The notes under the pieces are model-generated. The model worked only from the letters and a program-made list of their open reading frames with translations. It did not search any database and was not told the DNA's origin. A stretch of 63,890 nt of DNA, the filler included, from Reclinomonas americana ATCC 50394 (lineage: Eukaryota), in NCBI GenBank assembly GCA_048213135.1. It is 9 parts of 2 records of this genome, joined end to end, with 100 filler letters (N's around TTAATTAATTAA, not from the genome) between each part and the next. Parts side by side here need not be neighbours in the genome. Positions count along the whole stretch, not along the records: positions 1 to 24,591 come from PS015505.1; positions 24,692 to 29,902 come from PS015505.1; positions 30,003 to 37,257 come from PS015505.1; positions 37,358 to 40,891 come from PS015505.1; positions 40,992 to 46,405 come from PS015505.1; positions 46,506 to 54,307 come from PS015505.1; positions 54,408 to 56,469 come from PS015505.1; positions 56,570 to 62,508 come from PS015505.1; 1 more part is not named here. One strand, written 5' to 3'. The position numbers and the translations under genes are program-made. Below are positions 1 to 61,800 of this stretch, one piece after another (the stretch's first letter is position 1; each line of letters starts with the position of its first letter).

Positions 1-696
1 TCTGGCCAATGTCGCCGCTGGCCTCGTGAACTACTCGTCGGCCTCGGCCCGCGAGTGGTGGACCCCGAGCGAGGGCGAGCTGTCGCTCGACCGCCACCAG
101 TTGAAGAGCATCAGCTTTGCGAAGCCGTTTGATCAGGTGCCGCGTGTGGCCACCGGTCTGACCCAGGTGCACGCCTCGCGCAACGATCCCGACAACTACA
201 CCGGCACGGTGGTCGCCACCAGCGCCAAGGGCTTTGAGCATGAGTTGCGTACACACTGCTAGTCCATTCGCAGTGATCGGAAACACTTACACACGTGTCA
301 TGTTGCAGGGCTATTGTGCAGAGCAAGTCGCGCGTGCAGCAGCTGGCGTACTCGTGGCTGGCATTCCCGCCAGTGAGCCGCTCCGGCTACACGATGGAGA
401 CGGGCGATTATGCGCTCCGTGCCGATGGCGACTGCGCCAAGATCGAGTTCCCGACGGCGTTCGCTGCCGGCACCGAGGTCAAGTCACTGGTGTTTGCCAC
501 TGGCTGGGAGTTCAACTCGCACGATGACGAGCCGCTCGACTTTGACCTGGCGATCTCCACCACCACTGAGGACTGGATGGAGGTGTGCCTGGTCGGCGGC
601 ACTCGTGGCAACCTGAAGAAGGTGTCCTTCAACTGGGCTGCCTTTGGCATTCCATGGGCCCCCGTCGCCCCGCAGAGCGACGGTTCCCTCGCCTAA
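1..696 (+). CDS. Tandem H-type lectin domain protein (discoidin-like), 5' partial; intron 244-308
   Basis: Two repeats resembling H-lectin: ISFAKPFDQVPRVATGL...LAYSWLAF and IEFPTAF...VFATGWEF...VSFNWAAF. Intron GTTGCG..TTGCAG joins them in frame; TAA at 694-696. Confidence 0.65.
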
Positions 697-1289
697 TCGG
701 CCTGGTATCCTGAGCAATATCTATCCAACGCCTTCTTCTTCTTCTTCTGTTTGTTTGCTGTTTTGATGATGAGCCTGCTGGGTCTGTGCGGGAGAAGTGT
801 GCAGGAAAATACACAGCCATTCAGGCATCCTTCGATCATGAAAAAAGGGCATTGCATGACATTAACTAATCGTTGGGTGCAAGGCACTGCTCAAGAGTGC
901 TTGGGTGACTGCGAAGCGGTGCTTGGAGGGGGCGGTGGCGGTTGCGGTTGTTCTGGTGGAGCGGCAAAGGCCTCGACAAACTTGGACGACGACATCTCCT
1001 CCAACGGTGTGACGGCTGTCAGCGCGCCACCTGGACTCGCCAGCGCATACAGACCACTGCTGCCACCACCCACACCACCACCGCCACTGTGCCCACCCAC
1101 ACCACCACCGCTGCCGTCGCCAAACGGCGAAAACAGACTGCCTGGTACCGAGGCAAGTCGTAACGGAGAGCGATTGGCAGGATGCTGTTGCTGTTGCTGT
1201 TGCTGTTGTGGATGTGACTGCGGCGGTTGTTGTGATGCCTGGAGAGAGTTGCCAGTGAGTGCGATGAGCGCTCTAGAGACCCCTGCACA

Positions 1290-6100: not shown

Positions 6101-9100
6101 TGCTTTGCCGCGCGAAATGTACACGTCGATATTGTCGCCGAGACGCAGATAGTCGATGGTGCGCACCACCACATGCAGATCAAAGTACCTGCACGGCAGT
6201 GAGGATGTGACAGACAGAATGTGGCGAGCAGAAGACACACAAACCGGTGCTTTGGAGTGACCTTGTACAGTGCCATGCGATTGGGGAACCTGAGCGATCG
6301 CGACGAGTGATGAGTTTGTACATGTATCACCACCTCGCTCCTCTCGGGTGAGAACAACACAAAACAGAGGGAGGGAATCAGCTACGCAACACCTCCTCCA
6401 GTGTCTGCATTCCGTTCTCCTTCCACTTGTTGTATACAGGCCACGAACTCACTGGACTCTGCATGTGTACAAATCGATCTCAGAGCACTGCAGCCACTTT
6501 GGTGGTGGCTTCTGCTCACACGTCAAACCTGGAAATCGGTAACATCCAAACCGTCGTCGTGGAACTGTGCCGACAGACTGTTGTACGAGAACAGGCCATT
6601 GCAGACGCCAGCGTCGCTGATGCACACGCCTCGCGTCACCGAGTGCGTGGTGGCTGTGAAGATGCCGAAGGGATTCGTGCCCAGCGGCGCACACCTGATG
6701 CAAGGCGTGTTGTCGGTCAACAAATGTTCCACCCACAGCAAGTCAGTGGCTCTACTGCTGCAACTCACCACCCGCAACCAGATCCGGCCAGCAGCGAGTC
6801 ACCTGTTGCATGTGAGACAGAGAGTCGCGTGTGAGACGCCAAACGTCTTCATCGAGACAACTCGCTCCCATGATACACACTCACCAGCACAGGCTCCACC
6901 ACTCTGCGACAGCCACGATATGTTGGGAAGTGGATTCGTATACTGTGCGCATCGCAGGTGAGCACTTCTAACACGCAGCATGCTGGCGTCACTGATCAGA
7001 TAACATGTGGCATACGTGCCTGACTCGGTCGCAAGTTGATGTTGTACCACTGCACGAGCGCGTCTTCAGTGCGCCCCTTCAACACAAAGATACAAGGAGA
7101 GCACAAACGCACCCCACAGAGGCTGACGAGAAGCGGGTTCGTCAGGCTGCTGATCGGCCAGGCTGATTTGCCATCACTGGCACACACAATGTAAGTGCCG
7201 ACAGTGGAGACGGGATCCGTGATGCAAATGCCACTGCTGGTGACCGGATCGACGACCGCAATGGTGCAAAGATTGCTGGCAGACGAGCACGTTGTATCCG
7301 AAGGATTGCTGGTGATACTGATTGTATCACCGACAGCGACGCCCACATACGTAATCGTCAAAGTGTCACCACCGGTCTCACGAATGACGCGAGGAGAGAA
7401 GGATCCCACTGCAGCCACACAAGTGTGTCACTCACTCATTGCGCAACTATTCGCGTGCGTGACGGTGCCACACATACCCACAGCCAACGGCACTGGCGGA
7501 CTGGCAGAGCTGCCGACGCGGCGCCAGTTGTTTCCGTACGTGGTGGCCGTCACCAGCAGCTGCACGCCGGACTCTTCGGTTCCAGTGGACAAGTCGAGAA
7601 TGTCGCCGTACTCGTATCCAGTGCCGGCCACGTCGATCGAGTCAACAGACGTCACCAATCCTGTCGTACCATCAGCAGTGACAGTGAACGTGGCACCAGT
7701 GCCGTGGCCACCAAAGGTCGTGAACTGCCCGCTAGAGTTGAAACGCCCATCGCCATGGTTCACCAGCTGGACCGACAGCACACCGCCGACCTCCGTGCCG
7801 CCAACAAGGACACACACCGTGTACGTATCTGCCAAAAGAAATGAGCACACTCCGGAGACGAGAAACGAATACCGGCGAGCAAATCTACCTGCCACTGGAG
7901 CGCTCGTGGACACCAATGAGAACGTATTACTCGAGATGGGAAGAGCGACGCTGGGATCGATGCCAGCATGTGGGCAATCCAATCCTGCACCGCCACCAAG
8001 CAATTAACCAACTGGGCGATTTGCAGCGAAAATCGAAGCACGTTCACCACACCACACACCTTCGTAGACCGTGGCAACATCCGTGTCGTCGCCGTAGCCA
8101 CCAACATTGGATAGGGTGAAGGCGTCAGTGCCACCAGTGAACGTCAGCAGCGTCGGCGAGTACGAATCGTAGTAGACTGCATGCATCAAGTTGTGAGTGA
8201 GTCATAGGCATTTCGCCCACCACATGCAAGAGTCGAACCGACAGTGATGGTAGGAGGCGAGGAGAGCAGTGCGCCACCATACGGCGTGTAGCACACGTAG
8301 TAAGTGCCTGGTGTCTGCAACCCAACACCACCCACAGTGATCATCATCTTCACATTTGGTCCGGTGGTCTGCAGAACTTTTGTCAGTATTTGGCGTACGA
8401 AGAAGACACAGCGTGCTCTGCAGTAGCAGCACACAATGTGACGCAACAGAGTCGAGAAACTCCTTTCGCGGACCCGTGGCCAGAATGGGCGACACAGTGC
8501 AGGACGCATCGATGCTGAAATGCACCGTGTCGGTGACTTTCAGACCCACACCGCTCAGCGTCAGCTGTGCGCCAATATCGAATGCGGGAATGCGGGTTGG
8601 CTGCACGCTGACCATGGTAAGTGACGACAAGTCATCTGTGCGCACAGTGGGTCATGTGGCAACAAGTCAGAGCGGCGCATCGCAGCGTCGACGGTGACAT
8701 CCAGTAAAAACGTAACATGCCGACAAAACACCGGATGAGGGGACTTGCACGAGGCTTGATACACCCGCGTAAGAGATGCACAGAGCAAAGTTGGTGCGAG
8801 CCGACAGTCCGCTGCCACCCATGTGTACGTGCAGCTCGGTCTGCCGTCGGGAGGGAGAGCGATGCATGTTCGATGAGGACAGACCATATGGCAGGACTGG
8901 GGAAGCACAAACCTCGTGTGGGTTGGTGAACGAGGTCCCCGTCAATGCATCCAGTGCCACGTCCGTGCATGAAGATACCGCGCCAGCAGGCGTCGCAAAC
9001 ACCTTGTCGACCGTGTGCAAGTTCGCACCGAAAATCACGATGCGCGCGTACGGATCGTTGGCTCTGATCCCCAGTGGCAGCAGTCCGCTGACAGTGGACG

Positions 9101-10602: not shown

Positions 10603-13600
10603 TTAGTACCCAACACATCCACTGCGTGCACCAACAGTACTCAGTCGACATACATCTCAACGAACTCCCCTTCACATCCACTCCACGCAACAGCTTGTGA
10701 CAGAACGCCCACGATAGAATATCCACATCCTGCGTCACATCACCGACAGCGCCCGTGAAGCCAATGTAGCCGAAGCCGCTGGCGTTGAGGATGCCCTGCA
10801 TCACAAGCAACGTCAGCACCATCCCGGAAACCTCTCTTGCGCTGCGAATACATCTCATTGCATACCCTTTGCTGCATGTGGTGCGTAGAGTACGCGCTGC
10901 CCAGCGTCACCTCCACCACCAGTGCCGGCCGTGAAAGATTGTCCACAAACACTGTCAAGCGACCGGCCTTCTCGAACGCCGGTGGGTGATACCTGTAGTT
11001 GCAATTCATAAGAAAATGCATATGCTTGGCGAAAGCAACAACGACGACGACGACGAACCACACCCGCACTGTGTGCACTTCCCCGTCCGACAGATTGGGA
11101 ATGGACAGCGATGCTCCGAGCAAGTGCGATGTGGCGTGATCCGCAGAGATCGGCACACCCGACAGCGATGTGAACACTGCCACACGCAAATCAGTCTCAT
11201 TATCTCTCTCCACTACACGCACCACCACCGCCAGCGGATTGCTTCATCATACCTGCAACGTGATTGTCTGCATAGTTCACGTACTCGGTGGCATTGATCC
11301 ACCAGTTGTCCAGGCCCTATCACCACAGTGATCATGATCAGTATCGACAGACAGTTAGTTTATCAGGCAGCTGCACTGCACCCACCTGTTTGGGATCAGT
11401 GTACTCCTTGTTGAACTGTGTTTGTGTTGTGCGTACTGCAGTCAGCAACCAGCAGGCTACATGCACGCACACTCATCAGNNNNNNNNNNNNNNNNNNNNN
11501 NNNNNNNNNNNNNNNNNNNNNNNNNNNNNNNNNNNNNNNNNNNNNNNNNNNNNNNNNNNNNNNNNNNNNNNNNNNNNNNNNNNNNNNNNNNNNNNNNNNN
11601 NNNNNNNNNNNNNNNNNNNNNNNNNNNNNNNNNNNNNNNNNNNNNNNNNNNNNNNNNNNNNNNNNNNNNNNNNNNNNNNNNNNNNNNNNNNNNNNNNNNN
11701 NNNNNNNNNNNNNNNNNNNNNNNNNNNNNNNNNNNNNNNNNNNNNNNNNNNNNNNNNNNNNNNNNNNNNNNNNNNNNNNNNNNNNNNNNNNNNNNNNNNN
11801 NNNNNNNNNNNNNNNNNNNNNNNNNNNNNNNNNNNNNNNNNNNNNCTTCTCACTACTCTCTCTCTCTCTCTCATACACTCACCGTACGAGTCAAAGTCCT
11901 CAGAGCGAATGTCGATCGCCCACGGATTGCTTTCGCGAACAGATGTGAAGTCCCAGTCGCCCACCGCTGGTGCTTTGCCGCGCGAAATGTACACGTCGAT
12001 ATTGTCGCCGAGACGCAGATAGTCGATGGTGCGCACCACCACATGCAGATCAAAGTACCTGCACGGCAGTGAGGATGTGACAGAATGTGGCGAGCAGAAG
12101 ACACACAAACCGGTGCTTTGGTGTGACCTTGTACAGTGCCATGCGATTGGGGAACCTGAGCGATCACGACGCGTGATGAGTTTGTACATGTATCACCACC
12201 TCGCTCCTCTCGGGTGAGAACAACACAAAACAGAGGGAGAGAATCAGCTACGCAACACCTCCTCCAGTGTTTGCAATCCATTCTCCTTCCACTTGTCGTA
12301 TACAGGCCACGAGCTCACCGGACTCTGCATGTGTGCCGATCGATCTCAGAGCACTGCAGCTACTTTGGTGGTGGTTTCCGCCGCTTCTGCGACAAACCTG
12401 GAAGTCGGTAACATCCAAACCGTCGTTGTGGAACTGTGCCGACAGACTGTTGTACGAGAACAGGCCATTGCAGACGCCAGCGTCGCTGATACACACGCCT
12501 CGCGTCACCGAGTGCGTGGTGGCTGTGAAGATGCCGAAGGGATTCGTGCCCAGCGGCGCACACCTGATGCAAGGCGTGTTGTCGGTCAACAAATGTTCCA
12601 CCCACAGCAAGTCAGTAGCTCTACTGCTGCAACTCACCACCCGCAACCAGATCCGGCCAGCAGCGAGTCACCTGTTGCATGTGAGACATCGCGTGTGAGA
12701 CGCCAAACGTCTTCATCGAGACAACTCGCTCCCATGATACACACTCACCAGCACAGGCTCCACCACTCTGCGACAGCCACGATATGTTGGGAAGTGGATT
12801 CGTATACTGTGCGCATCGCAGGTGAGCACTTCTAACACGCAGCATGCTGGCGTCACTGATCAGATAACATGTGGCATACGTGCCTGACTCGGTCGCAAGT
12901 TGATGTTGTACCACTGCAAGAGCGCGCCTTCAGTGCACTCCCTTAGCACACAAACAAGGAGAGCACAAACGCACCCCACAGAGGCTGACGAGAAGCGGGT
13001 TTGTCAGGCTACTGATCGGCGAGGTTGCCGTGCCATCACTGGCACACACAATATAAGTGCCGACAGTGGAGACAGGATCGGTGATGCAAATGCCGCTGCT
13101 GGTGACCGGATCGACGACCGCAATAGTGCACAGTTGGCTGGCAGACGAGCACGTTGTATCCGAAGGATTGCTGGTGATACTGATTGTATCACCGACAGCG
13201 ACGCCCACATACGTAATTGTGAGAGTGTCACCACCGGTCTCACGAATGACGCGAGGAGAGAAGGATCCCACTGCGCCCGCACAAGTGTGTCACTCATTGC
13301 ACAACTATTCGCGTGCGCGACATGCGTGAATGTACACGTGCGACACACACACGCACCGACTGCTAGTGGAACAGGTGGACTGGCAGAGCTGCCGACGCGG
13401 CGCCAGTTGTTTCCGTACGTGGTGGCCGTCACCAGCAGCTGCACGCCGGACTCTTCGGTTCCAGTGGACAAGTCGAGAATGTCGCCATACTCGTATCCAG
13501 TGCCGGCCACGTCGATCGAGTCAACAGACGTCACCAATCCTGTCGTACCATCAGCAGTGACAGTGAACGTGGCACCAGTGCCGTGGCCACCAAAGGTCGT

Positions 13601-15591
13601 GAACTGCCCGCTAGAGTTGAAACGCCCATCGCCACGGTTCACCAGCTGGACCGAAAGCACGCCGCCGACCTCCGTGCCGCCAACAAGGACACACACCGTG
13701 TACGTATCTGCCAAAGGAAATGAGCACACCACTGACATGAGATAGTGGCCATAGCGAACAAATCTACCTGCCACTGGAGCGCTCGTGGACACCAATGAGA
13801 ACGTGTTACTCGAGATGGGAAGAACGACGCTGGGATCGATGCCAGCATGTGGACAATCCAATCCTGCACCACCACCAAGCAATTAATTGGGCGATTCGCA
13901 GCGAAAATCGAAGCACGTTCACCACACCACACACCTTCGTAGACCGTGGCAACATCTGTGTCGTCGCCGTAGCCACCAACATTGGATAGAGTGATGGCGT
14001 CTGTTCCGCCGGCCGACGGCAGCAGCGTCGGCGAGTACGAATCGTAGAAAACTACGAGTATCATCAATTTGTGATCATGAGTGAGTCATAGGCATTTCGC
14101 CCACCACATGCAAGAGTCGAACCGACAGTGATGGTAGGAGGCGAGGAGAGAACTGCGCCACCATACGGCGTGTAGCACACGTAGTAAGTGCCCGGCGTTT
14201 GCAACCCAACACCACCCACAGTGATCATCATCTTCACATTTGGTCCGGTGGTCTGCAGAACTTTTGTCAGAATGTGATGCACAGAGACATCTGCGTGCTC
14301 TGCAGTAGCAGCACACAACGTGACGCAACGGAGTCGAGAAACTCCTTTCGCGGACCCGTGGCCAGAATGGGCGACACAGTGCAGGACGCATCGGTGCTGA
14401 AATGTACCGTGTCGGTGACTTTCAGACCCACACCGCTCAGCGTCAGCTGTGCGCCAATATCGAATGCGGGAATGCGGGTCGGTTGCACGCTGACCATGGT
14501 AAGTGACGACAAGTCATCTGTGCGCACAGTGGGTCACGTGTCAAAACAGTATGTTGTCGCAGCGCCTCACATCGCCGACGGTGCCATCCAGTAAAAACGC
14601 AACATGCCGACAAAACACCGGATGAGGGGACTTGCACGAGGCTCGAGACGCCGGCGTAAGAGATGCACAAAGCAAAGTCTGTGCGAGCCGACAGTCCGCT
14701 GCCACCCATGTGGACGTGCAGCTCGGTCTGGTGCGATGGAGAATCGATGTATGTTCGATGAGGACAGAGAAGACCACAATGCGCCTGTGCGGCAAGACTC
14801 ACAACACAAACCTCGTGTGGGTTGGTAAACGAGGTCCCCGTCAATGCATCCAGTGCCACGTCCGTGCATGAAGATACCGCGCCAGCAGGCGTCGCAAACA
14901 CCTTGTCGACCGTGTGCAAGTTCGCACCGAAAATCACGATGCGCGCGTACGGATCGTTGGCTCTGATCCCCAGTGGCAGCAGTCCGCTGACAGTGGACGC
15001 ACGCAGACTCCACCCACCGACTCGCCTGTGCGAATGCAGGGAGAGAGAGATCAAAGTCTGTCAGCAACGAGCTTCTGAGAAGCACGTGCATCAATGAATT
15101 TATCCGCTGCGCAACATCTTGACTCCCGTGGCGAACTGATAGCACACGTAGTAGTCTCCGGCTGGCACAGAGTCCGCCAGCACGTAGCGTTCCGTGGACA
15201 CACCAGCAGCACCGTTCACCGCCGGCGTGTCGTCACTCAACGTGACATCGGTTGTCGCACAGCTGGAACTCGTCGACAGAAACACAGTGTCATTGTCGGT
15301 GGCGGTGGCCAGCGAGGAGCCAGTAATGGTGATCTTGTCGGGTGAGTGCGAACTGTCAACACCACCGCGAACCACGGCCGGAGTGAAGAGTTGCACAATG
15401 CCAGTGCGCGCTGGCACAGCCGCAGTCACATGTACAGTGGCGCAACACAGCACGAGCAATAGCACTGTGGCCAATAAGAATGAGTGAGTGCGAGGGAGAG
15501 CGAGCGTGTGCGTGCGTGTGAGTGAGAGAACACCTGCACAAAACAACGTCGAGTGGTTTGAGTAAGTTCGGAAGGACAGTGGCCGCGCCAT
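10603..15591 (-). CDS. Secreted multidomain L-type lectin protein, copy B
   Basis: Near-identical exon series to copy A with a different N-terminus (MARPLSFRTY..VLLLVLCCATVHVTAAVPAR) and the same terminal exon GCVGY*. Part of the lectin domain falls in the gap 11480-11845. Confidence 0.78.
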
Positions 15592-15761: not shown

Positions 15762-18235
15762 ATGTCGTCCCTGTACTACCTCCTCGAGGCCCTTGGGTTG
15801 CGTCCAGGCACAAACAACAACACAGCACACACATTCTCTGTCAAACAAAATGAAGATGGCCATCGCCACGATCCTCTCTCTTTCTTCCCCCTCACTGCCC
15901 TCGTTGCACCCTGCACATTCTCCCCTTCTCTCTCGGTGCCTTATATGCGGGCGCACAGGCTGGAGGATCGCAAGACTGCGGCCAATTCATCCAACTCGAC
16001 CTCGTCTTCCTCGTCCACCTCCTCCTCGACTCTCCCCGTCTTCCCTGCCGCACTGTCGACACGCGACAAGGCCAATCTCATTGATGTGGAAGAGGCGGGT
16101 CGTCTGGCCATCTATCGAGGTCAGTCTGTGTTGTCTCTCTGTTTCGCGCGCGCGCGTCTTGTCCTTTGCCTCACTCTCTCTCTCTCTCTTTCTTGTCTTG
16201 GAAAGGAGCGGGCATTGGAACGCGTGACTGCGCGTGCGTACGCTCCACTCATCCGGTGCCGCTCACCTGCGGAATCTATTATTTCGAGGTCAAGATTGTC
16301 AGTCGCGGCCGTCTTCCGTTGCGCTTGCTCTCTCTCGCCCTCGCTCTCTTGCCCTGGTCGCACACTAAAGTCTATGTTGTATTGCAGGTTGATTGGTATC
16401 GGTCTGTGCAGTCGCACTGTGCAGCTTAACAAGCAGCCGGGATGGGAGCAGCATTCGTATGGCTATCACGGAGACGATGGACGCAAATTCTGGTCCGTGT
16501 TTGTCGTTGTTGCTTCTTCTTGTGTGGTGTCGACTCACTCGGCGTGCAGTTCGTCGGGGCGTGGTACCGAGTATGGTCCCACGTGGAACACGGGCGACAC
16601 GATCGGCTGCCTGGTGAACTTTATCACTCGCACCATTGCGTACACGCGGAACGGGAAGCACTTGGGTACGGCAGCAGCGAGCCAGCCTGTGGGTCTATGC
16701 GTGGTGGAGCTGACCAAATTCGTTGTGCTCCCTGTCTCTCTCGCTCTCTTCCCCGCCTGCCGCAGGTGTGGCCTTTGAGGCGTTCTCGGAGGAGTTGTAT
16801 GTGGCGATTGGCATGAACTCGGCCGGTGCTGTGGTGCAGCTGAACTTTGGACAGGAACCATTCGTGTTCAACCTCAAGAACTATGTCGATGTTGAGTCTA
16901 TCTTTCTGTCTCTGTGTATGTGTGTAGATTCGACGCCGACTGACGACCGTCGCAGGAGGCGCGCGGCAATCTAATGGCAGAAATCGAGTGCATTTCACTC
17001 GCAGATATGGCGACCCCGCCACCTCCAGCATCATCGTCTTCTGCCGCCACCGCCGCCTCTGCCTCCGACTTGTCAGCATCCGCATCGGCAATGCAGGTGG
17101 ATGAGCCACTGGCACCGCCCTTTACGCCGCCGCCACCACTGTCCGACGGTCCTCCATCTGGCTCATCGGCTGCCGCCGGAGCAACGCCAACCGTCTCCGC
17201 CGCCATGCACTCGCTGATTCTCGGCTACCTCATCCATCAGGGCTACCCGCAGACCGCCAGCGTATTCGCTCGAGCGTGCAACAGCAGCAGCACCAGTGAG
17301 CTGCTGGAGCATCTGCACTCGATTGAGCACCGACAAGGCATGTTTGTGTCTTCTTCTTGGTCGCCGTCGACGCCGCCTCGTAACTGACTGTCTGTTCGTG
17401 TGTTGCAGCCATTCGGGATCACATTCTGAACGACCGTGTCGACGAGGCACTGGAGCTGTTGCAGCAGCTGTATCCGCGCATTGTGGAGACGCGCACGGAT
17501 TTGATTCTTCGTCTGCGGTGTCAAGTGTTTATTCGCTTTCTGCGTGATTTCCACGAACGTGGTGACCAGGTTCGGTGCACCACCCATCGCTTGTCATTAT
17601 CGGCAGTCCAACTGAATGGTGGTGGTGGTACGCGCGCGCAGTCGCTGCAATTGCGCGCTCTGGCCTACGGTCGGGAGTATTTCAGCGACTGGTCGCGCTT
17701 CTCTGACGAAGACCAGGAGCACCTGAAGAATGTTCTGTCGCTGATCGGCTACAAGAATCTGTACGACAACCCCATGCGACACTTGCTGGAGCCAGTGGAG
17801 CTGATCGAGCTGGCCAACGCCGTGAATGCGGCCATTTGTGGTTTGTCAGGAGGTCCTCCCACTCACGCATGTCCGGTGTACTCAACTGCGTGTTGTGTGC
17901 TTGCGCAGTATCGCTGTGGCAGGCACCAGTGAGCCCATTAGAACAGCTGATTCGCCAAATGTTTGTGACGGTCGACACGTTGGGTCGGAAACCGTTCATG
18001 CAGCTGCAGCATGAAAAGTGGGCGGCGTCGGTGTGTGATCTCACCACCATGCAATGTGCTGTTCGTCACACATGCTTCTCTGACAGCCACTCCACAGGTG
18101 GCGTTGTTGCCACACCGGCAAATCATTACTGGTCGCCAGCCGGAGCCATCATCGTCGCCACCACCACCACTGGTGGCGCCCCCCATTTCGCAAATCTTCC
18201 GCAGTCGTTCCAGCGACGCCATGTGTGAGTCGTGA
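15762..18235 (+). CDS. RANBP9: Ran-binding protein 9/10 (RanBPM/GID1-like; SPRY-LisH-CTLH-CRA); 3' end uncertain
   Basis: SPRY motifs [59 protein letters not shown]; Lis[73 protein letters not shown]. Confidence 0.9.
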
Positions 18236-18297: not shown

Positions 18298-19248
18298 GGG
18301 GGAGAATGTGATGAAGGAGAGGAGCGGAAGTGAGGACACGAGAAAGACGTGGGTCCCGCGCGCACACCAGCGTGGTCTGCCAATGACACTGGTTGGTGCA
18401 GAGCGGGTGTGCTGACACGCTCTCCTGTTGTGTGTTGCAGCCGAGGGTTCCGACGAAGAAAGCAGATGGCTCGCTTACGAAGGGCACGTGTGGTGCGTGA
18501 TGCATTGTCGTCTCGTGTGGGAACGGTGCACTGATGTTGTTGTGTTGCAGGGATGCTGCACGGCGATACGCTGGTCCCCGTTCACAAGTTGCGTGCGGCT
18601 CTGTTGCTCGATGATTTTTTCGTCCGTATACTGACACTTTACTGCCGACCTGTCAGTCTCCACGGCAAGCTCGTTCGAGCATGCAAGCGCAGAGTCTCTC
18701 GATGGGCGCGCAAAGTGGCACTCATGGCCTGCTGGCCCGACTGTTTGAGCGACTGCCCCGTCATCCGCTGGCCGACAGTGCGTCTTGTGTTGCTGTTGAC
18801 GCCCTTTCCTGCATTCTTTGCCGCGTGACTAACAGTTCAACTCTTTGTTGCCACCCGTGCAGACTCCGCGGGAAGGTATCCCCCGCATACGCGCTACGTT
18901 TGGAGTGTACATGTTGTGTGTGTGTGTCACTCATGGGCGTGGCGCGTGTGATGCAGGAGATTATACCCGCCGGATGCCGAAGCAGAAGGAGCGGAGGAGG
19001 GAGGTGCGGCTGGCCCGCGCGCTCCTGCTGGACGTGGCGGAGGCGGAGGCGGAGGCGGCGGCGGCGGCGAAGGAGGTGCTGCGAGTGGCAGCAGCTCAAG
19101 CAGTGTGACATCGCGCATTGTGCGTATGATTTTCGGTCGAGGTGGTGGCAGTGAGGCTGGCGGTGGCGGAGCTGGTGGTGCTGGTGGAGCTGGCGGCGGT
19201 GATGGCGATGACGAATTCATGGAGGGCGACGATGCCCACTGGATATAA
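18298..19248 (+). CDS. Multi-exon hypothetical protein or RanBP 3' extension; reading frame unresolved
   Basis: Plus-strand intron-like segments (e.g. 18588-18656, 18905-18955) and a Gly-rich frame ending DEFMEGDDAHWI-TAA. I could not build one unambiguous model. Confidence 0.3.
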
Positions 19249-22300: not shown

Positions 22301-22764
22301 GGCTGTTGTACTCGACACCTTTTTGCAAGGGAAAAAACAATGGAAAAGGGGTAAGCTGGAGCGCATTCGGAACAAACACACACACAACAGGAGAAAACTG
22401 GTTCACGCACGCACGCACACAGAGAGCACAAACCAGGCACACAAACAGAGCGCGTGTGTGTGTGTGAGAGAGAGAAAGAGAGAGGTGAGAGCAAGTGCAT
22501 GTGTGGAGGAATATGCCAAGGCACTTTCACGTGCGTGAGAGTGTTTCTCTTCTCATTTCACTCTCTGCCTCTGTGTGTGCGTGTTAGTGTATGTGAGAGC
22601 GAGCTTACTCAACTTCCCTTGTCCCAGAAGCGCTGCTTGTATGGCACTCCGAGGTACGACTTGGCCGTCTCAATCACCTTTTGTCGCAGACACTGTCGTC
22701 GTGCGAGCTCCACTGCAGAGAGTGCCTTGCTGCCACTACTGCTGCCTCCCTCCTCACGAGGCAT
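19350..22764 (-). CDS. NlpC/P60 (papain-like Cys peptidase) domain protein with long low-complexity C-terminus
   Basis: Spliced N-terminus: LRQKVIETAKSYLGVPY..SPLFLDCCGLVRRV..LEPGDLIFY..MTHVEIFLGDG, matching the NlpC/P60 pattern (G.PY, DC.GLV, PGDL.F, H.GI). Followed by Lys-rich and Ser/Arg/Pro-rich exons; ends LYAIGV*. Confidence 0.8.
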
Positions 22765-46857: not shown

Positions 46858-49800
46858 TGACAAGCCGCAGTGGAGGCGCCGCTGCAGCAGCAGCAGAGCA
46901 ACAGTGGGAACAGTGGGAGCTGGGAACGCGGCGCAGGCCAGCACCAGCACCGACGGCCTCGCCCGACGACGACACCGCTGGCGAGCAAGGGAGCATGGAG
47001 ACGCCGCGTTGGGCGCAGCCGTTCACGCGCATCGTGATGGACAGCACCGACGGCGAGGAGAGTGGTATGGCGCCGACTCTGTTGGCCGGCGGTGCCGCGC
47101 TGGCCATTGGTGTGTCGGCTGTGGGCGTCGCCTTTTCGAGACAACTCTTTCGCATGTTCTCGCCCGCGTCGTCTTCGTCGACCACCACCACCACCACAAG
47201 GACGTCGTCGGTGGCGGTGACGACTGGCACCTACGGCATCCATCGCCAGCAGAGCGCCGTCGACGACAGTGAGAGCGGTAGCAGCGAGGAAGAGGAGGAG
47301 GACGAGGAGGAGGAGGAGGAGGAGACTAGCGTGCCGGTGATTGTCAGCACGGATGGTGAGTGTCTGCGTGCTCGTGACATGCCCGTGTGTGACCCCCACA
47401 TGCTCATTTTCATTCTCACGCCACGCAGGATCGCCGGTCGCCGGCATGCACATGACCGACATCATGGCCGCGTGTGGCAGCGGGCTCGGTCGCTGGCCGG
47501 AGGAGTCGGGCGACGATGAGGACGATCCAGTCGAGGTCGTCACCGCCGGCCTGGAGGGCGACCAAGACGTCACGGTCGACTTGGTCTACCTGGACGACGA
47601 CGAGGAGAATCGCGGCGAGGTGGAGGTCGTCGTTGTTGTCGATGATGACGACGAAGAAGAAGAGGAGGAGGAGGAAGACGCCAGTGCCGAGCTGAATCGC
47701 AGCATGGTGATGGAGTCGGCCTCCAATGCCGAATTCACTCAGCGCGACGAGGTGTCGACGCTGCACGAGAGTGTCGACAACAGCGGCAGTGTGGGCAATG
47801 TCGACGACGACGACGATGACGACGAAGACGACGAAGACGAAGCAGACGAGGGAGAAAGCAATGATGACGACGACGATGCTGACGACGATGACGACGATGG
47901 AGGTGACAACGGAGGCGCGGCACTTGCGCAGCCGGTGCACCAGAAACCGTTCGCGAACACCAACGCGGTTCTGCTCGATGAGATCTCGTCGATTGGCAGT
48001 GAGGACGACAGGCCATCGGTGCCAGCCTCATGCGACCACATCAAGCCGCTTATCGCCATTGCCACCGCCGGCAACACCCTGTCAGTGTCGCCCAGTCTGG
48101 AGGAGGTCGATGCCGTCGAGGAGCAACTGGAGTCGTGGTTGGCCGAGGTTTGGCGGTCGACGGTTGCAATTCGTTTTCTTCTTTCACTGACTGTGCATCG
48201 ACAACAGATTACACCACCGGGCACACCTGCGTATGCATATGTCGACGGTTCAGACGACAGCAGCGAGCCGTCGCCGTTTGGTGTGGCTTCGCAGTCGGCG
48301 AGCGCCAGAAAGGTGCAAAGTGTCTGCCTGTTCATTTCACTTGTTGGTTTGCGAGCCCAGCTGACAGTGAATCGCAGGCGCGAGGCGATGTGGCGACACC
48401 CATTGTGTATCACGACTCGGGCAGCAAAAAGTACCAGCGTCTCGCCATGTCTGCTCCACGCACCCGCACATTCTCCACGCTCACTCTGAGCAGGTGCCGT
48501 TGCCGCTCGTCACACACTCTCTTCGTACTTCTCTGCTGACACTTCGTCTGTTGTGACAGCCCACCGACACCGCAAAAGCACGACGTGTACAACATTCCCG
48601 AGGCCTCTGCGTGGCACTTCCCGTCCTTCCGCGACCTGATCAGTGCGTCTACATATGCAATTGCTGGTCTCTCGACGGCGCTAATCCGTGTCGTCCAACA
48701 GCATCCACCATTGCCTCCATCCGTGAGACATGCGCGGCATCGCGCAAGGGTTGCGTGGTGGTCATTGAGGGTGCGCCGGGCAGCGGAAAGACGGCGATTG
48801 CCCAGGCGCTCGCCGAGCACATGCGCACCGACGGCGACTTCCGCGGATGCGGTCTGTTCCTCAACGTCCGCGGTGACACGCCGACCGAAGAGATGGCAGT
48901 TGTGTGCATGTGTGTCGCTCCCTTACAACCGGTGGACTCCCCCACTGACCTCTGTGCGCACGCGTGCAGCCGGCCGACGCGCTGCAAAAGCTGCTGGACG
49001 ACTTTGATGTTCCGATTGAAGAGCCCGACAATTTTGAGTGGCTGGCCCGCACGTTTACTGCACAGACATACACGTCGGACGCCAAACGCCGACACACTGT
49101 GGTGCTGGACAACGTGGCCACCTCCGATCTGGTGCTGCCGTTCTTGCCCAAGTTCCCGGCCGCCATGACTGTACAAAATGGTGACCCTGATCGCTTTTCC
49201 ACGGTGTCGCCATCGTTCTCAAGCTGACGCGAGTGTGTTTCTTTGCAGGTGTGGAGTTCTCGGGACCCTTGACCATTGTGACGACGCGTGTCAGTGGGCT
49301 GGCGGCACGCTTGCGTCTCACTGCGCCGTCCACGCCAGTGATTGGCGTCATTGTGCCGTCCATCAAGCGCACTGATGCCGAGGCCTTTGTGCACGACGTG
49401 CTGGTCCCTGGCGGATCGTTGCGTGTGTGATGCGAAAATCCACTTTGCATAAAAATCAGTCGCGCTGACTGACTGACTCTCTTGTCGCCGCAGAAAACAT
49501 GCCACGGCCGCCGAGGAGGTTCTGCTCAAGTGGGTGCGTGACCCAATGCACCCGCCGGTGCAGCCGTTCCAGCTGGCCGCCGTGGCTAAGTTGCTCGCCT
49601 CCGTATCCGTGGGCGACAGTATCCTCAGCCCGGGGAGCCCTCTGCGCAAGCTCACCATGTACCACGTGGAGCACGCGTGCACCGACGCATTGCAGCACCT
49701 GCTTGCCAAAACCATTGGCAGCCTCGACGAGATTGAGCGACGCGCGCTGGTGTGCGCTGTGGCCCTCGGTCCGTCGTTCTCCGTGAACGCGCTGGGCCAC

Positions 49801-52800
49801 TTTGTCTCCGGCACCTCGGATCCGCTGCCCAAGCGCAGCAAGTGCGTACCCAGTGTCGCAAAAAAATATCGCAACGAGACGCGTGATTGTTGACGTTGTT
49901 TATTGTCGTTGCAGAATCGGCAGCAACAGTCCATTGGTCGCCCGCGATAGTGACATGGATGCACTGTTGCGTCTGTGTCTTGCTGGTTTGAGTCGCTCGC
50001 CGTCTTGCTGCTGACACTACATTTGCGGGCTGCAGTGGTGCCGGATCATCGTCGTCCTCGTCGTCGTCGTCTGCGCACGCCTGGCAACAGAGGTAGGCAC
50101 ACTGCACGCGTGTGTGTGTGCAGTCCGCCGTGCTCGTGTGTGGCTCACTGTCGTTGTTGCACAGTGCGCCGACGCAGACATCGGCGACATCACCAAACGA
50201 CCGATCGGCGGTCGACGAAGCCTTGTCGCGCACAGAGAGGTACAGCCAGCATTTGTGGTTCTTGACTTTACATGGCGCTGACTCTTGTGTGCTCCTTGTG
50301 CAACACAGCGCATGTGGCGACTCGGCACCCACTCGAGCACGCGAGGTGCCGCACTTGCCGATTGGCTCCAGCTCCATCAGTTCGCCCGCCGCGCAGTGTG
50401 TGGTCGACGCTGTCGAATCGTTGCTGCACTGGGGCATTCTGACGGAGAGTAGGGTGGCTGCACCAACGGCCGAGGCCGCCGTCGCCAGTGACAGCAGCAG
50501 CAGCAGCAAGTCGGACACGCCGACCTGTTTGTTCGAGGCCACACGCCGCTACGGCGCACAGTCGCGTGGCAGCAATGGCGCCAGCAGGTCTGCCGGTGAG
50601 GCGAAGCGCCCCGTCAACTACAGTGCAGTGGACGAGAGCGTGGAGCCGCGCGTGGGCGAGACAACAACGGAGGATGCGGAGGAGGGTGGCGATTTTGAAA
50701 GCACGGGTGTTGAGTTGGAGACGAATCCGCTGTTTGCGCAGTTTGTGGCCAGCGAGTGGGCCTCGACCTTGCGACGTGTCTCCAAGCGCGTTTGCCTGGA
50801 GCAGGTCGAGTGGGTGTACGAGTGGTGCCTGCGGCGGGACGACCAGGATCTGCAGCAGCGCCGCGCACTCACCGCTTCGCTGGACCACTTGTGGCAGGCA
50901 CTCTCTACCTTCTCGTTCGCCGATCTGCCTGAGAGGACATGGGTGTTGGCCATGTGGTGCTTCTGCCGTGTGACGGGCGACCCGCTCACGCCACCGCACC
51001 GACGACTGGCCGAAAGCTTTTGCAAGGTGAGCGACGATGTGCGTCGTCTCTTCAGTTGACTCTTTCGCCTCAATCCACACCTGCTTCTGTGCAACAGATG
51101 TGTCAGTGTGCGCTCCCGACGGTGCAGCTCGGTGTGGCGGCCGAGGCTGGCCGGCCGGCGGCGGGTGGAGAGAGCTCACGATGGGGCCTGCTGCGCCAGT
51201 GGGCTGGTCTTTCTCGCCTTCTCGGACGCGTCGAGGAGGCTGCCAAGCTGCTGCGCATCTGCTGCCGTTGGGTGCGACCGCTCGACAGCACTGCATGGGC
51301 CGCCACGCAATCCGATCTGGCACTGACACTGTGCGAGTTGAATCAACCGGCCGAGGCTGAGGTCTGTAGTATGCAAGGCTGTGTGTCGCGCAGTGGACTG
51401 ATGCATGCCGTGACTTGCACAGACTCTGTACCGCGAGGTTCTCCAACACCAGGAGCGCCATGCGCTGCTGCCGGAGGCTTTGACGACGCGCGCCGCCATT
51501 GGCACAGCACTGCGAGTGCAAGGCCGACGGGAGGAGGCGGTGAGCGAGTACAAGGCGTGTCTGGGCGAGTGGTCGACAGCGCTTGGCATGCCCAACAGCA
51601 CGGTGGCACTCCGAACGCGACACAGCCTCGCCGAGACCCTGCATGAGCTGGCGCGCTTCCCCGAGGCCGAGACCGAGCTGCGGGCGTGCTGTGAGGGTCG
51701 CCGTCGCGTTCTCGGACCGCTGCACCGCTCGACGCTGGCCACTCATCGCCGACTGGCCATGACGCTGCGCGCCATGGGCCGGCTCGGTGAGGCCACCAAG
51801 GAGCTGCGAACGTTGGCACACACGCAACAAAAGTCGTTAGGTGCCGAGAATCCCGACACGCTGTCTACGCTGGCTGATCTCGGTGAGTGTGGTCATTTGC
51901 AACGAAGGGGGGGAGTGCACCGAGGGTTGTGAGTGAGAAAGGGCAGAGATGGGGGATGGGAGGCGTGTGGCGTGGCTCTTTCTCTCTGTTGTGTGGGATT
52001 TCTTACTGGAGCTATGTTTGTGCCGTCAGTGTTTCTGGGTTTCGACTGACGGGAGAGGAGCGTGGAGGATGCAGAAGGAGAAGAGAGAGATGAGAAGGAG
52101 AGGGACAGTAGTGGGCCGGAGGTGGTTTAACTTGTACAGTTTGTGTGTGATGAGGAAAGTTGTTGTATTCTTGTTTGCAAAAGGGAAAATGTACCGTGAG
52201 TGGTTAATGATGACAACTCATCTCTGCCTGCGTGTGTGCATGCACAGCCGTGTTGATGGCCGACCAGGGAGACTTGAACGGGGCCGAGAAATTGGAGCAG
52301 CGAGTCGTGGCGGCGCGCAGCAAGACACTCGGACCGAATCACCCCGACACCCTGGCCACCATGAGCAATCTGGGTGTGACACTGCGTGATTCTGGTCGCA
52401 TGGAGGAGGCGGAGAAGGTGCTGTGCACGGCGCTGGAGGGTCAGAAGCGTATTCATGGCGAGCACCACCCCGAGACCATTTGCACTGCTGTTGCGTGCTG
52501 CGTTTTTCTTTGTACTCTTTCGGAGGACGCTGACGGTGTTGCTCCACACATTCCCATGTGCAGCACCAACTGGCTGTGCTGATGCGCTACACTGACCGCG
52601 TGGGCGAAGCCGAGCGCCTCCTGCTCTGGTGCCTGAAAATGCAGGAAGAGACGCCCGAGGTCGACGAGCTCACCGTTCTCGCCGCGCAACACGACTACGC
52701 CGTCACACTGCGATACCGTCACGCCAACAAGGAGGCCGAGAAGATTCTGCGTTTTGTGCTCAACGCACGCCAGCAGTTGGTGAGAGCATCCGTATGCGTT

Positions 52801-53659: not shown

Positions 53660-53817
53660 CCAAGCCTCATTTCATTGTTTATTTTACCCTTTTTCTCCTC
53701 CTCTCTGTATCTCCACTTTGCACGTGCGCCGCAGTGTGCCAGAGGCCACTTGATCCCGAAAAAAAATAAACACCAGACCATTCGCAAACAGGACCGCACA
53801 TTGCAGCGACAGACAGA

Positions 53818-58860: not shown

Positions 58861-58878
58861 GCTCATCTCTTGTCACAG

Positions 58879-61800
58879 TGCGAAGTCGGCAACGCACCCT
58901 TCTTCCGTCGGTTTCTCGCCGCGCTGTTTGGACGCAACCGGCTGCACATTTTTCGCAGTGCAAATGCGTTTCTCACCCTCGGCACCGTCACCTCGCTGTG
59001 CATGGTCGACAAGGAAGGCATTCTGACAGATGTGCGTGTGGGATTTCTCCTGCAAGTCGCAATCCCTATTGGTCGCTCATTTTTTTGTGCCTATTCTGCA
59101 GCACTATCCGGTGCCGGAAAAGGTCTATATGCTACACGAGAGTGACGATGAGGAGGGCGATGAAGACGACGAGGAGTACGAGGAGGCGGAAGAGGTGACG
59201 GTGGAGGTCGCTGAGCAAGAGGGCCCACCCGACGGAGGCGAGGTGGAGGGAGAGGGCGAGTATGAAGAGGGCGAATACGAGGAGGGCGAGTATGAGGAAG
59301 ATGAGGAAGAGGAGGATGAGGAAGAGGAAGGAGAAACGACAGAGGAGGAAGGCGGCGGCGGCGGCGGCGGCGGTGAAAAGGTCGTTGCCGCCACTGCTGC
59401 AGCAACTGTCGCCGCCGCCGGTGTCGATGACGAGGATGACGCGCGTGCACCCACCGACATCTCCATTGAGATGGACGAGGCGCCGGATGTGGAGAACGCC
59501 GGTGTTGCTGCTGGCGGTGTTGCTGACGACGAGGATGATGAGCACCGATATGCCGACGATGACGGGACTCTGCAGTCGGCACCCCCGCGTGAACACGGTG
59601 CGCTCTGGATGCCATTTCTCTCTCTCTCTCTCCTCTTGTCGTCTCAATGTTTTTCATGCATCGACAGACGGCGAGCTGGAGCCATCCGGAGGTGGACCGA
59701 GTCTGCCGAGTTGCGTCCATGTTGAACATCGCAGGCAGATGTTCTTGTGGTGCTCACGAATCGCGCAGCATGGGGCGGCAAGGCACGTNNNNNNNNNNNN
59801 NNNNNNNNNNNNNNNNNNNNNNNNNNNNNNNNNNNNNNNNNNNNNNNNNNNNNNNNNNNNNNNNNNNNNNNNNNNNNNNNNNNNNNNNNNNNNNNNNNNN
59901 NNNNNNNNNNNNNNNNNNNNNNNNNNNNNNNNNNNNNNNNNNNNNNNNNNNNNNNNNNNNNNNNNNNNNNNNNNNNNNNNNNNNNNNNNNNNNNNNNNNN
60001 NNNNNNNNNNNNNNNNNNNNNNNNNNNNNNNNNNNNNNNNNNNNNNNNNNNNNNNNNNNNNNNNNNNNNNNNNNNNNNNNNNNNNNNNNNNNNNNNNNNN
60101 NNNNNNNNNNNNNNNNNNNNNNNNNNNNNNNNNNNNNNNNNNNNNNNNNNNNNNNNNNNNNNNNNNNNNNNNNNNNNNNNNNNNNNNNNNNNNNNNNNNN
60201 NNNNNNNNNNNNNNNNNNNNNNNNNNNNNNNNNNNNNNNNNNNNNNNNNNNNNNNNNNNNNNNNNNNNNNNNNNNNNNNNNNNNNNNNNNNNNNNNNNNN
60301 NNNNNNNNNNNNNNNNNNNNNNNNNNNNNNNNNNNNNNNNNNNNNNNNNNNNNNNNNNNNNNNNNNNNNNNNNNNNNNNNNNNNNNNNNNNNNNNNNNNN
60401 NNNNNNNNNNNNNNNNNNNNNNNNNNNNNNNNNNNNNNNNNNNNNNNNNNNNNNNNNNNNNNNNNNNNNTTCCCCTCCCTTCCCTCCTCCCTTCCTCTCC
60501 CTCCTCCCTTCCCTCCCTTCCTCCCTTCCCTCCCTTCCCCTCCCTTCCCTCCCTTCCCCTCCCTTCCCCTCCCTTCCCCTCCTTTCCCCTCCCTTTCCCT
60601 CCCTTTCCCTTCCTCCCCTCCCTCTCACACTTTTTGTGTCTCCCAGATTACTGAAGCCTCTCGGCCTTAACTGCATCCTCAACTCGCTGTGGACACTGGA
60701 GAATCCCACATCGGAGCTGACGGATCCGCAGGAGTCCATGACTGTGACGTGGGGCCGTTGCGTGGCGGAATGTGATGTTTTCATGCCACCGCCGTTGCTT
60801 TACTCACAACCGTGGTGTCGCCGCAGGATATCTGTCGCTTCTGGGCCGCGAGATTGGATTCACCGAGGAGGTGCTGAACATGTACCCGTTGCAGCGCAAG
60901 GTGCACATGTTTGCGTTTCCCAAGGTCTGTGCTCCATCCTCCATTGTGACTGGCGGTGACGGCGAGTTGACAATACTTCGGTGCAGGAACACGTCCAACA
61001 GCGTCGCACCTCGTCTGTGCGGAAGCGCATGCACATCATGAGCCTGGTGGTGCGCGATCCTCTCGGCGGCTACCAACTCATGTCGCAGGGATCACCCGGC
61101 ATTCTACTCGATTACTGCACTCGTGCGTTGTTGTTATTCCCCTCTTGTGTAGCTCAAGCGCGTGCACTGACCACTGATTGCGGCAGAGTACTGGGACGGA
61201 TCGGATCTGAGAGAGCTGACGCCCGATGATCTCGACGAGCTGCTTGACGTGTACACGCGCTGGGTGGACCAGGGCGACTACATTTGTGTGGCATTCGCGT
61301 TGCGTAGAGTCACACAGTCGCAGGTCGGTGCTGATCTGCTGACTCGAACACACAGCTACAAGCCGCTCGTCAACGACGCGTCGGGCTCGCTGTCGCGCAA
61401 CGTGGAGAGCGGCACCGATGCGGAGATTCGTTTCGACGATTTCGGCAGTCCGCCAACGCCGCTCACTGGTCCGTCGGCGAACGCCTCGGCCAACGCGTCC
61501 GCATCGGGAACCGGCTTTGCGCCATTTGCTACGGCGGCGGCCGACGACGCCTCGGAGCCTGTATCATCGACGGCGACCGAGTCGATGGAAGGTGTGCATG
61601 TTTTTCATCTTCCCAGTGAGCGCCGCGTCCGTTGTCTCATGCGCTGGCAGTTTCACGCATGCGGGCGCCGGAGCGCTTCTGGCGCACCCTGCAGCGTGAT
61701 CAGATCTTTATTGGGTGCGGGGACTGTGGTTTTTCGTGGCCTCACGTGGTGTTTCTGCTGACTCTTTGTTTCTGCGCACAGCATGATTGCGATGCGCAAG

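Follow-up and report, generated by a model that had tools for sequence, protein, structure and literature searches.

How does a spliceosome recognise an intron whose 5′ splice site seems to carry one nucleotide too many? The question arises from a window of Reclinomonas americana ATCC 50394 DNA (63,890 nucleotides, made up of nine parts of two records of assembly GCA_048213135.1 joined end to end with 100 filler letters between parts; all positions count along this whole stretch), in which predicted introns starting with the ordinary GTNNG are accompanied by a recurrent set starting with GTTGCGT or a close relative. The evidence collected here identifies the GTTGCGT-type donor class as real, frequent and tightly defined, and places it among the known shifted or bulged 5′ splice-site registers as a variety not described before. 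We give a probability of about 0.6 to the reading that these motifs mark short GT-AG introns cut before the first G and handled by the ordinary spliceosome. The motifs concerned would be GTTGCGT and, less often, GTTGCGC, GTTGAGT, GTTACGT and GTTTCGT, and the donor would amount to GTGCGT lengthened by a single U behind the GU, so that the conserved G/U would lie at +6/+7 and not at +5/+6.

The intron set was predicted ab initio from this window with a self-written, self-trained gene parser restricted to GT or GC donors and AG acceptors, and three parses were compared: a signal-free first pass, a parse with a flat donor model, and the full self-trained model. Already in the signal-free pass, 6 of 83 introns start with GTTGCGT (∼0.4 expected) and one with GTTGAGT. 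Under the flat donor model no heptamer starts more introns than GTTGCGT (21 of 203, 0.89 expected), and 21 of the 36 copies present among the ∼8,200 GT sites of the window are chosen as donors. The self-trained parse distributes its 212 introns over GTNNG (137), GTTG[ACT]G (30), other (39) and GC (6) donors, and a stricter subset of 97 introns gives 71, 12, 12 and 2, respectively; the "other" group is probably mostly noise. Class introns are spread over 16 of the 24 intron-bearing gene models of the self-trained parse, and their share of 26–30 in 212 (∼12–14%, about 1 in 8) becomes 28 of 186 when one of two paralogous copies is left out. At the level of the bare motif, GTTGHGT has 69 matches on both strands compared to 39.12 ± 6.11 expected from 100 dinucleotide-preserving shuffles, none of which reached 69. 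Where Pfam or PDB matches establish the coding strand of a gene span, 12 copies of GTTGCGT are in sense and 3 in antisense orientation. A simple test of ORF compatibility is uninformative, being passed by 65% of all GT sites.

The predicted GTTGCGT-type donors are thus used far above chance, and they form a discrete class that is no product of independent positions: independent position frequencies predict 0.38 GTTGHGT donors, and 26 were observed. A prior sequence-only reading of the window had proposed a frequent, tightly defined second donor class, a description that is borne out and even understated the case; the refuting outcome which it had named, a motif no commoner than independent positions imply, failed to appear. 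Its claim that the conserved G/T is moved one base inward likewise agrees with the data, for 32 of the 70 donors lacking G at +5 carry +6G and +7T. Among these 32, the extra base at +3 is T in 31, the middle three bases are TGC in 27, and the complete heptamer is GTTGCGT in 23. With GC at +4/+5 in 27 of 30 class donors, the class is far more uniform than an ordinary donor plus T would predict. All 20 coordinates proposed in that reading do start with the motif on the strand given, including the GTTGCGC at 16318; usage as donors is 4 of 20 in the signal-free, 13 of 20 in the flat-donor and 14 of 20 in the self-trained parse, with 15797, 36839, 48899, 61299, 3212 and 10691 skipped by the last.

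Apart from the donor itself, the two sets of introns look much alike. Median length is 70 nt in the class and 66 nt in ordinary introns, CAG acceptors are found in 27 of 30 and 122 of 137, respectively, and interior composition is similar, a likeness which argues for one machinery serving both classes. The loose branch-like motif CTRAY occurs in the last 30 nt of 12 of 30 class and 36 of 137 ordinary introns; k-mer enrichment upstream of branch-like motifs is weak. Assignment to U2-type GT-AG introns is consistent with a GT start and an AG end in all 30 class introns (in a parser permitting GT/GC-AG only) and with six junctions that restore a conserved protein with exact spacing, plus one that does so conditionally. 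U12-type introns have the 5′ consensus RTATCCTT together with a branch motif near the 3′ end; this assignment was rejected, class donors being unlike RTATCCTT and acceptor-side features matching those of ordinary introns. An introner or repeat family was rejected as well, interior similarity among the 30 introns being limited to two paralogue pairs (4 reciprocal matches). The clearest difference lies on the exon side, where position −1 is G in just 1 of 30 class donors compared to 98 of 137 ordinary ones (p about 1e-12) and T in 17 of 30. Ordinary donors of the type GTNNGT show weak identity at +3/+4, with T at +3 in 26 of 137 and C or T outnumbering A at +4, and the commonest of them in the window is GTGCGT.

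The position of the cut was assessed by the spacing of the encoded proteins, with solved structures, Pfam profiles, 54 COQ9 relatives and a 42-residue repeat as references. Cleavage before the first G is supported by this comparison at six junctions (244, 16318, 28958, 41652, 42162 and 52490). The Pfam scan was run on 471 stop-free ORFs, each of at least 75 aa; a TIG/ephrin-receptor-like ORF is also present in the window. In an H-type lectin gene, the intron at 244..308 (plus strand, 65 nt, GTTGCGT, in all three parses) lies in a domain whose Pfam H_lectin positions 2–51 match the upstream and 52–67 the downstream ORF, the downstream half weakly (E 0.18); by codon count, profile position 47 is the last upstream codon, 48 the split codon and 49 the first downstream codon. 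A RanBP9/10-like gene has an intron in its SPRY domain at 16318..16387 (plus strand, 70 nt, GTTGCGC), supported by spacing to structure 5jia_A: upstream residue 35 aligns with 86 and downstream residue 2 with 90, and the three positions between, 87–89, are exactly taken up by upstream residue 36, the amino acid of the split codon and downstream residue 1. The same gene carries a predicted intron at 16891..16955 (plus strand, 65 nt, GTTGAGT, flat-donor and self-trained parses). The exon upstream of it aligns with RanBP9 as far as residue 235 of 5ji7_A, and a search of the downstream exon against PDB gave no RanBP match; for the CTLH exon, a longer homologous protein was sought and not found, and no metagenome locus was confirmed.

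In the sulfiredoxin gene, the intron at 28903..28958 (minus strand, 56 nt, GTTGCGT) places upstream residue 35 at residue 67 of 3cyi_A (1xw3_A aligned over 36–67) and downstream residue 1 at residue 70 of 1xw3_A, leaving 68–69 to be filled by residue 36 and the split-codon Met immediately ahead of the GGCHR motif. The earlier proposal of a cut before the first G at this site is therefore matched by exact spacing against solved structures. A further predicted sulfiredoxin intron lies at 28755..28823 (minus strand, 69 nt, GTTGCGT, flat-donor and self-trained parses) and has a short downstream exon. COQ9 provides two junctions, judged by alignment with 54 relatives of 230–420 aa among the 150 matches listed. 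At 42103..42162 (minus strand, 60 nt, GTTGCGT), the alignment shows neither gaps nor insertions peculiar to this COQ9 for 14 residues on either side of the junction. At 41592..41652 (minus strand, 61 nt), the variant donor GTTTCGT, with +6G and +7T and no GC 3 nt downstream, puts Pfam COQ9 position 25 at the last upstream and 26 at the first downstream codon, gap-free against the 54 relatives. The ordinary COQ9 junctions at 41816 and 41435, taken as control, also pass the alignment test; COQ9 exons 3 and 4 gave no match in PDB.

In a NACHT-TPR gene, the intron at 52490..52563 (plus strand, 74 nt, GTTGCGT) falls within a TPR repeat that after splicing comprises 42 residues and aligns ungapped with the preceding uninterrupted repeat (score 70), whereas a cut moved 3 nt downstream gives 43 residues, requires a gap and lowers the score to 61. 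The cytochrome b5 intron at 42859..42932 (plus strand, 74 nt, GTTGCGT) would fit too, on one condition. The last complete codon upstream corresponds to Cyt-b5 profile position 38, and the first Gly of the GGGDAT exon to position 43; an exact fit over the four positions between requires micro-exons at 42933–42936 and 43032–43037. The cut claimed for cytochrome b5 on conserved spacing is thus confirmed only on acceptance of these micro-exons, which are 4 and 6 nt long. The acceptors of 244, 16318, 28958, 42162 and 52490, the five that were read, have no AG 3 nt upstream, so a compensating shift of the 3′ end is unavailable at those junctions. Class introns fall in all three reading phases. Cleavage at the second GT (+6/+7) was considered and dropped, the frame being broken at the checked junctions.

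Other predicted introns extend the class with varied parse support. On the plus strand, these are GTTGCGT introns at 38211..38267 (57 nt, all three parses), 33363..33417 (55 nt, signal-free and self-trained, absent from the flat-donor parse), 31795..31859 (65 nt, flat-donor and self-trained), 49418..49493 (76 nt, self-trained only) and 18588..18715 (128 nt, self-trained only, in a weak gene model). On the minus strand, the GTTGAGT donor of 22319..22613 is in all three parses, the intron being modelled at 295 nt with an uncertain acceptor, and a GTTGCGT intron at 39496..39564 (69 nt, self-trained parse) belongs to a gene model devoid of homology support. The self-trained parse adds plus-strand donors of the class at 25805, 26011, 33873, 49966, 59710 and 60757 (25805 and 60757 also found by the signal-free parse), 26897 and 34347 (GTTGCGC), the ambiguous 23139 (GTTGTGT), and the variants 34019 (GTTTCGT), 34744 (GTTTTGT) and 43254 (GTTCTGT). 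Among the skipped sites, the reading of 48899 (GTTGTGT) is ambiguous, given the ordinary donor GTGTG that follows in frame 3 nt downstream. The TMEM94 site marks a candidate in-frame intron at 61299..61355 (plus strand, GTTGCGT, best acceptor at 57 nt); lacking stops and having a length divisible by 3, it cannot be called by a coding model and is used by no parse. On the minus strand, GTTGCGT and the best acceptor at 70 nt define a candidate intron at 10622..10691, with a paralogous site at 3143–3212. There the parse took GTTCGT 26 nt downstream (a 44-nt intron), and the model of copy B overran into a neighbouring MADS-box gene; since the parser model ran wrongly into that gene, the introns first proposed at 3212 and 10691 appear the more plausible.

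Microsatellites of GT and GA occur in the window, as does a tandem gene duplication. Paralogue A (12156..15115, minus strand, self-trained parse) has four predicted class introns, with donors at 15115 (GTTGCGC), 14603, 14329 and 12256 (GTTGCGT), and paralogue B (6290..8716, minus strand) has donors at 8716 (GTTACGT), 8447 and 6390 (GTTGCGT). Three of the paralogue A donors are unchanged in B at the aligned positions 9218, 8447 and 6390, of which the B model uses the latter two and takes a donor at 9188 instead of 9218; the fourth corresponds to the GTTACGT at 8716. Identity between the copies is 83.7% in predicted introns and 95.5% in the remainder, hence the introns diverge faster. One pair of paralogous donors differs by G to A at +4 (GTTGCGT compared to GTTACGT), so that the role of +4 resembles that of +3, a purine position, in ordinary donors.

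In the reading we prefer, the same spliceosome most likely handles both donor classes. Pairing of U1 with the GCGU core, followed by that of the U6 ACAGA box, would be displaced inward by one nucleotide; the register would be either wholly shifted or have a U bulged at +2/+3, and the first GU would still be positioned at the catalytic centre. We infer this pairing register, and that no dedicated snRNA would be needed. The extra U adjoins U+2 in 31 of 32 donors, which fits the +2/+3 bulge. The almost complete lack of G at exon −1 agrees better with the wholly shifted register. Loss of the −1 G is not predicted by a simple bulge model, and T at −1 is predicted by neither register. With the textbook 5′ end of U1, which may differ from the organism's own, predicted pairing energies average −1.0 kcal/mol for the class and −6.1 kcal/mol for ordinary donors. 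In this prediction 18 of 30 class sites fold one step shifted (two or three pairs) and 1 of 30 canonically, and the C found at +5 in 27 of 30 class donors would be a mismatch to the textbook U1. Pairing predicted to be so weak would be compatible with recognition by a variant snRNA or by some other factor.

A dedicated variant snRNA is unlikely. This would be an additional U1, possibly joined by a variant U6, complementary to GUUGCGU, so that different RNAs would serve the two donor classes, loosely comparable to U11 and U6atac acting on U12-type introns. It would account for a nearly invariant seven-base motif, for pairing with the textbook U1 close to nil and for the sharp difference at exon −1, and the preference for C or T over A at +4 of ordinary donors hints at a non-textbook snRNA pairing region. 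However, length, acceptors, composition and the loose branch-like motif resemble those of ordinary introns, the extra U next to a U is explicable by a bulge without any new RNA, and the 5′ ends of U1 are highly conserved across eukaryotes. An Rfam scan of the whole window gave zero matches, from which a U1 or U6 gene appears to be absent from the window.

Flexible spacing, read for the most part at steps later than U1, is improbable. In that case GU-N2-GU and GU-U-N2-GU would be equally acceptable to the U6 ACAGA box, to U5, to Prp8 or to some other protein, and U1 pairing would be of minor importance for both classes. The weak +3/+4 identity of ordinary GTNNGT donors, with its share of +3 T, and the weak predicted U1 pairing of the class speak for it, as do human cases in which U6 and not U1 sets the cut site (PMC4856993). 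Middle bases should then vary as they do in ordinary donors, yet TGC strongly prevails. Very improbable is the explanation by GC-AG introns cut 3 nt downstream, between GTT and GCGT, with GTT exonic. The two cut sites are mutually in frame, so the reading frame alone cannot separate them, and GC donors do occur in most eukaryotes. But the downstream cut would add one residue at 28958, 16318, 42162, 244 and 52490, where spacing is already exact, and cleavage before GC is thus contradicted at five homology-checked junctions; the GTTTCGT at 41652, devoid of the GC, passes the identical spacing test. Moreover, GTT would need to be invariant exon sequence across three phases, and GCGTNN lacks the strong consensus that GC donors usually carry. 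Almost no credence is due to an artefact, whether of composition by chance, of a family of repeats or introners, or of circularity in the self-training, even with a parser trained on its own output and with the microsatellites and tandem duplication noted above, given the motif excess over shuffles, the choice of the class already by the signal-free and flat-donor parses, the junctions checked against homologues, its persistence on removal of one paralogue copy and its sense-strand bias.

Our study has importance in that, with ∼1 in 8 predicted introns starting GTTGCGT, the splicing machinery would have to read routinely a start that is very rare in humans. Shifted or bulged U1 pairing is a rare exception in mammals, known mostly from minigenes. 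An organism with a single exact sequence of this type as its most frequent donor heptamer would offer a natural system for asking how the cut site is fixed despite U1/U6 pairing displaced by a nucleotide, whether variant snRNAs arise in evolution to match a class of donors, and how such a class originates and spreads. Gene finders trained on GTNNG will misplace or miss about 1 intron in 8 in this genome. Full-text searches found no description of GTTGCGT/GUUGCGU as a donor class, although a genome paper on the lineage might hold one. Doubtful, but of wider consequence, is the idea of two discrete 5′ splice-site codes used in parallel. The GUUGCGU class would then have a U1 and/or U6 variant to itself, or the spliceosome would be adapted so as to accommodate one more nucleotide from the cut to the U6 pairing; if true, 5′ splice sites would be recognised in a third way, different from those of U2-type and U12-type introns.

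Among known systems, the closest are the shifted and bulge +2/+3 registers of Roca and co-workers, both experimentally demonstrated in human cells (Tan et al. 2016, PMC4856993). Common features are the extra U after GU, the G/U displaced by one, the cut at the first GU and the U2-type GT-AG context. The human share is 68 predicted (54 curated) bulge +2/+3 sites among 201,541 (∼0.03%), in agreement with the earlier statement that bulged-register sites exist as a minor class in mammals, compared to ∼12–14% of predicted introns here; the core is GCGU here and AAGU in human, G at exon −1 is avoided here, and U1 pairing of the present class is a prediction. Tandem donors 3 nt apart, as in STAT3 exon 21 (PMC11162779), keep the frame with either cut. 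The GTTGTGT sites at 48899 and 23139 are true tandem donors of this kind, with GTGTG 3 nt downstream; by contrast, the downstream site of GTTGCGT and GTTGAGT is GC or absent, and homology spacing favours the upstream cut alone. Like U12-type introns, the class is a minority with a tight 5′ motif beside a looser major class. Unlike them, it has an unrelated motif, shows no distinct branch or acceptor features in the predicted introns, and is far commoner than the ∼0.36% which PMC4856993 gives for U12-type introns in mammals.

The introns that begin with GTTG[ACT]G, mostly GTTGCGT, are most likely ordinary short GT-AG introns, with a donor that would represent the organism's favoured GUGCGU plus one extra U behind GU. 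The intron calls rest on the sequence of the window, on homology and on published work; the gene models are our own predictions from one 64-kb window that includes a duplicated gene, obtained with a generalised-HMM parser in which coding sequence is modelled with a period of three, intron length is limited to 40-400 nt, donors must be GT or GC, and acceptors must be AG. A signal-free pass, seeded from Pfam-supported ORFs only and run without a splice-site model, gave 83 introns, 6 starting with GTTGCGT (∼0.4 expected) and 1 with GTTGAGT; GTTGCGT constitutes 36 of the ∼8,200 GT sites in the window. The self-trained parse gave 212 introns, comprising 137 with ordinary GTNNG donors, 30 with GTTG[ACT]G, 39 with other GT donors and 6 with GC. 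Rerunning the trained model with flat donor scoring made GTTGCGT the most frequent donor heptamer, starting 21 of 203 introns and accounting for 21 of its 36 copies in the window. The class is present in 16 of the 24 intron-bearing models and, without one of the two paralogous gene copies, comprises 28 of 186 introns. As judged from the DNA, its share appears to be about 12-14% of predicted introns, nearly all of one sequence, and this figure could be somewhat higher or lower, since the other GT donors are probably mostly false. Clear errors among the gene models include antisense models and one in which a lectin-like gene is fused to a MADS-box gene.

The sequence-only reading had proposed a frequent, tightly defined second donor class, and the counts bear this out: the two strands together hold 69 copies of GTTGHGT as compared to 39.1 ± 6.1 in shuffles, and 26 GTTGHGT donors are seen where independent position frequencies predict 0.38. 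Among the 70 donors lacking G at +5, 32 have G at +6 together with T at +7, and 31 of these 32 have T, the extra base, at +3. All 20 individual positions proposed by that reading carry the motif (GTTGCGC at 16318); as donors they hold in part, the full parse taking up 14 of them, the flat-donor parse 13 and the signal-free pass 4.

Outside its 5,011 N, the window consists of eukaryotic DNA of ∼58% G+C, densely filled with genes that in our models have many, very short introns (median length 66-70 nt). Pfam matches in stop-free ORFs fix the strand for about a dozen genes, including H-lectin, SPRY/LisH/CTLH, WD40, NACHT/TPR and TIG/ephrin-receptor-like genes on the plus strand, and MADS-box, COQ9, ankyrin and CFAP65-like Ig protein genes on the minus strand; an Rfam scan of the window gave no matches. 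An artificial linker, N44-TTAATTAATTAA-N44, with stops in all six frames, is found at 24592, 29903, 37258, 40892, 46406, 54308, 56470 and 62509, so that the window is made up of nine or more short contigs strung together, and genes flanking a linker are not necessarily neighbours. At 53649-54219 (plus strand), our model runs on from the NACHT-TPR gene into a short stretch of WD repeats that by eye resembles the start of Sec13/Seh1 and probably belongs to a gene of its own, interrupted by the linker at 54308. The MADS-box (SRF-type) gene at 2790-2880 (minus strand), wrongly joined by our parser to the upstream lectin-like gene, appears by eye to have its own ATG near 2877.

A tandem duplicate of a large secreted lectin-like gene (minus strand, 10560-15417 and 3081-9520; 92.7-96.6% identity) provides a check on the intron calls. 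The predicted introns diverge faster and hold most of the indels, with 83.7% identity and 75 gap columns in 1,128 as compared to 95.5% and 7 in 2,471 for the remainder. Three of the class donors are conserved in both copies, and at a fourth one copy has GTTGCGT where the other has GTTACGT, which is the purine exchange to be expected if +4 acts like +3 of ordinary donors.

Class donors have C at +5 in 27 of 30 cases and T at +7 in 26 of 30. The exon's last base is G in only 1 of the 30, compared to 98 of 137 ordinary donors, and T in 17 of 30 compared to 24 of 137. Ordinary donors read G|GTG(T/C/A)GT; their +4 base is more often C or T than A, and 26 of the 137 carry T at +3, preferences that are unusual for pairing to textbook U1. 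Against a textbook U1 5' end, which may not be the organism's, predicted pairing averages -6.1 kcal/mol for ordinary donors (canonical register in 112 of 137) and -1.0 kcal/mol for class donors (register shifted by one in 18 of 30). The near-invariable U beside U+2 would fit a 'bulge +2/+3' register, and the scarcity of G at -1 would fit a fully shifted register in which G+1 lies opposite U1 in place of the exon's last G. Recognition by a variant U1 or U6, or by a reader other than U1, stays alive as a rival because the weak predicted pairing, the mismatch of the +5 C to U1 and the preference for T at exon position -1 are all unexplained; that T is accounted for by none of the pairing models considered.

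At 48899 and 23139 (plus strand), GTTGTGT holds an ordinary GTGTG donor 3 nt downstream and in frame, and these two could be tandem donors instead of class members. For the class at large, the alternative is a GC donor 3 nt downstream (GTT|GCGT, with GTT exonic), which is in frame, so that protein spacing alone can decide. Flanking exons were therefore aligned separately to unbroken references and residues counted across the junction. In sulfiredoxin (28958), where the sequence-only reading had placed the cut from conserved spacing, residue 35 of the upstream exon matches residue 67 of 3cyi_A (36-67 for 1xw3_A too) and the downstream exon begins at residue 70 of 1xw3_A; one residue plus a split codon fill 68-69 exactly, directly before GGCHR, confirming the placement. 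RanBP10 (16318) fits exactly, the 35th upstream residue being 86 of 5jia_A and the 2nd downstream 90. In COQ9, the last codon before 41652 is Pfam profile position 25 and the start after it position 26, and the GTTTCGT variant there offers no GC alternative. Aligned with 54 COQ9 relatives of 230-420 aa among the 150 matches listed, the class-type junctions 42162 and 41652 show no private gap, likewise the ordinary junctions 41816 and 41435; the junction with another GT donor, 41974, has one. In the H-lectin gene (244), profile position 47 is the last upstream codon, 48 the split codon and 49 the first downstream, with a weak downstream half. Splicing at 52490 in the TPR gene yields a repeat of 42 residues, gap-free against its neighbour; the GC alternative comes to 43 residues and requires a gap. 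The cut likewise claimed for cytochrome b5 (42859) stands conditionally, because it fits the Cyt-b5 profile spacing from HPGG to GGDAT only with two candidate micro-exons, 42933-42936 (4 nt) and 43032-43037 (6 nt, both plus strand); read through without them, the protein runs ADILLRAQ and then stops. Among the junctions testable by spacing, none contradicts a cut before the first G.

Class introns match ordinary ones in length, CAG acceptor and interior composition, and occur in all three phases; the loose CTRAY motif lies within the last 30 nt of 12 of the 30 class introns and 36 of the 137 ordinary ones. They share no interior sequence beyond paralogue pairs and are thus not an introner family.

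Literature searches on motif and register returned nothing relevant, and a genome paper on the lineage could already report the class. Tan et al. 2016 (PMC4856993) describe both the bulge +2/+3 and the shifted register as proven for human cells. The registers themselves being known, the new element lies in how large and how sharply defined the class is: the same paper counts 68 human bulge +2/+3 sites (54 curated) among 201,541, whereas the donors described here appear to make up ∼12-14% of predicted introns and are nearly one sequence.
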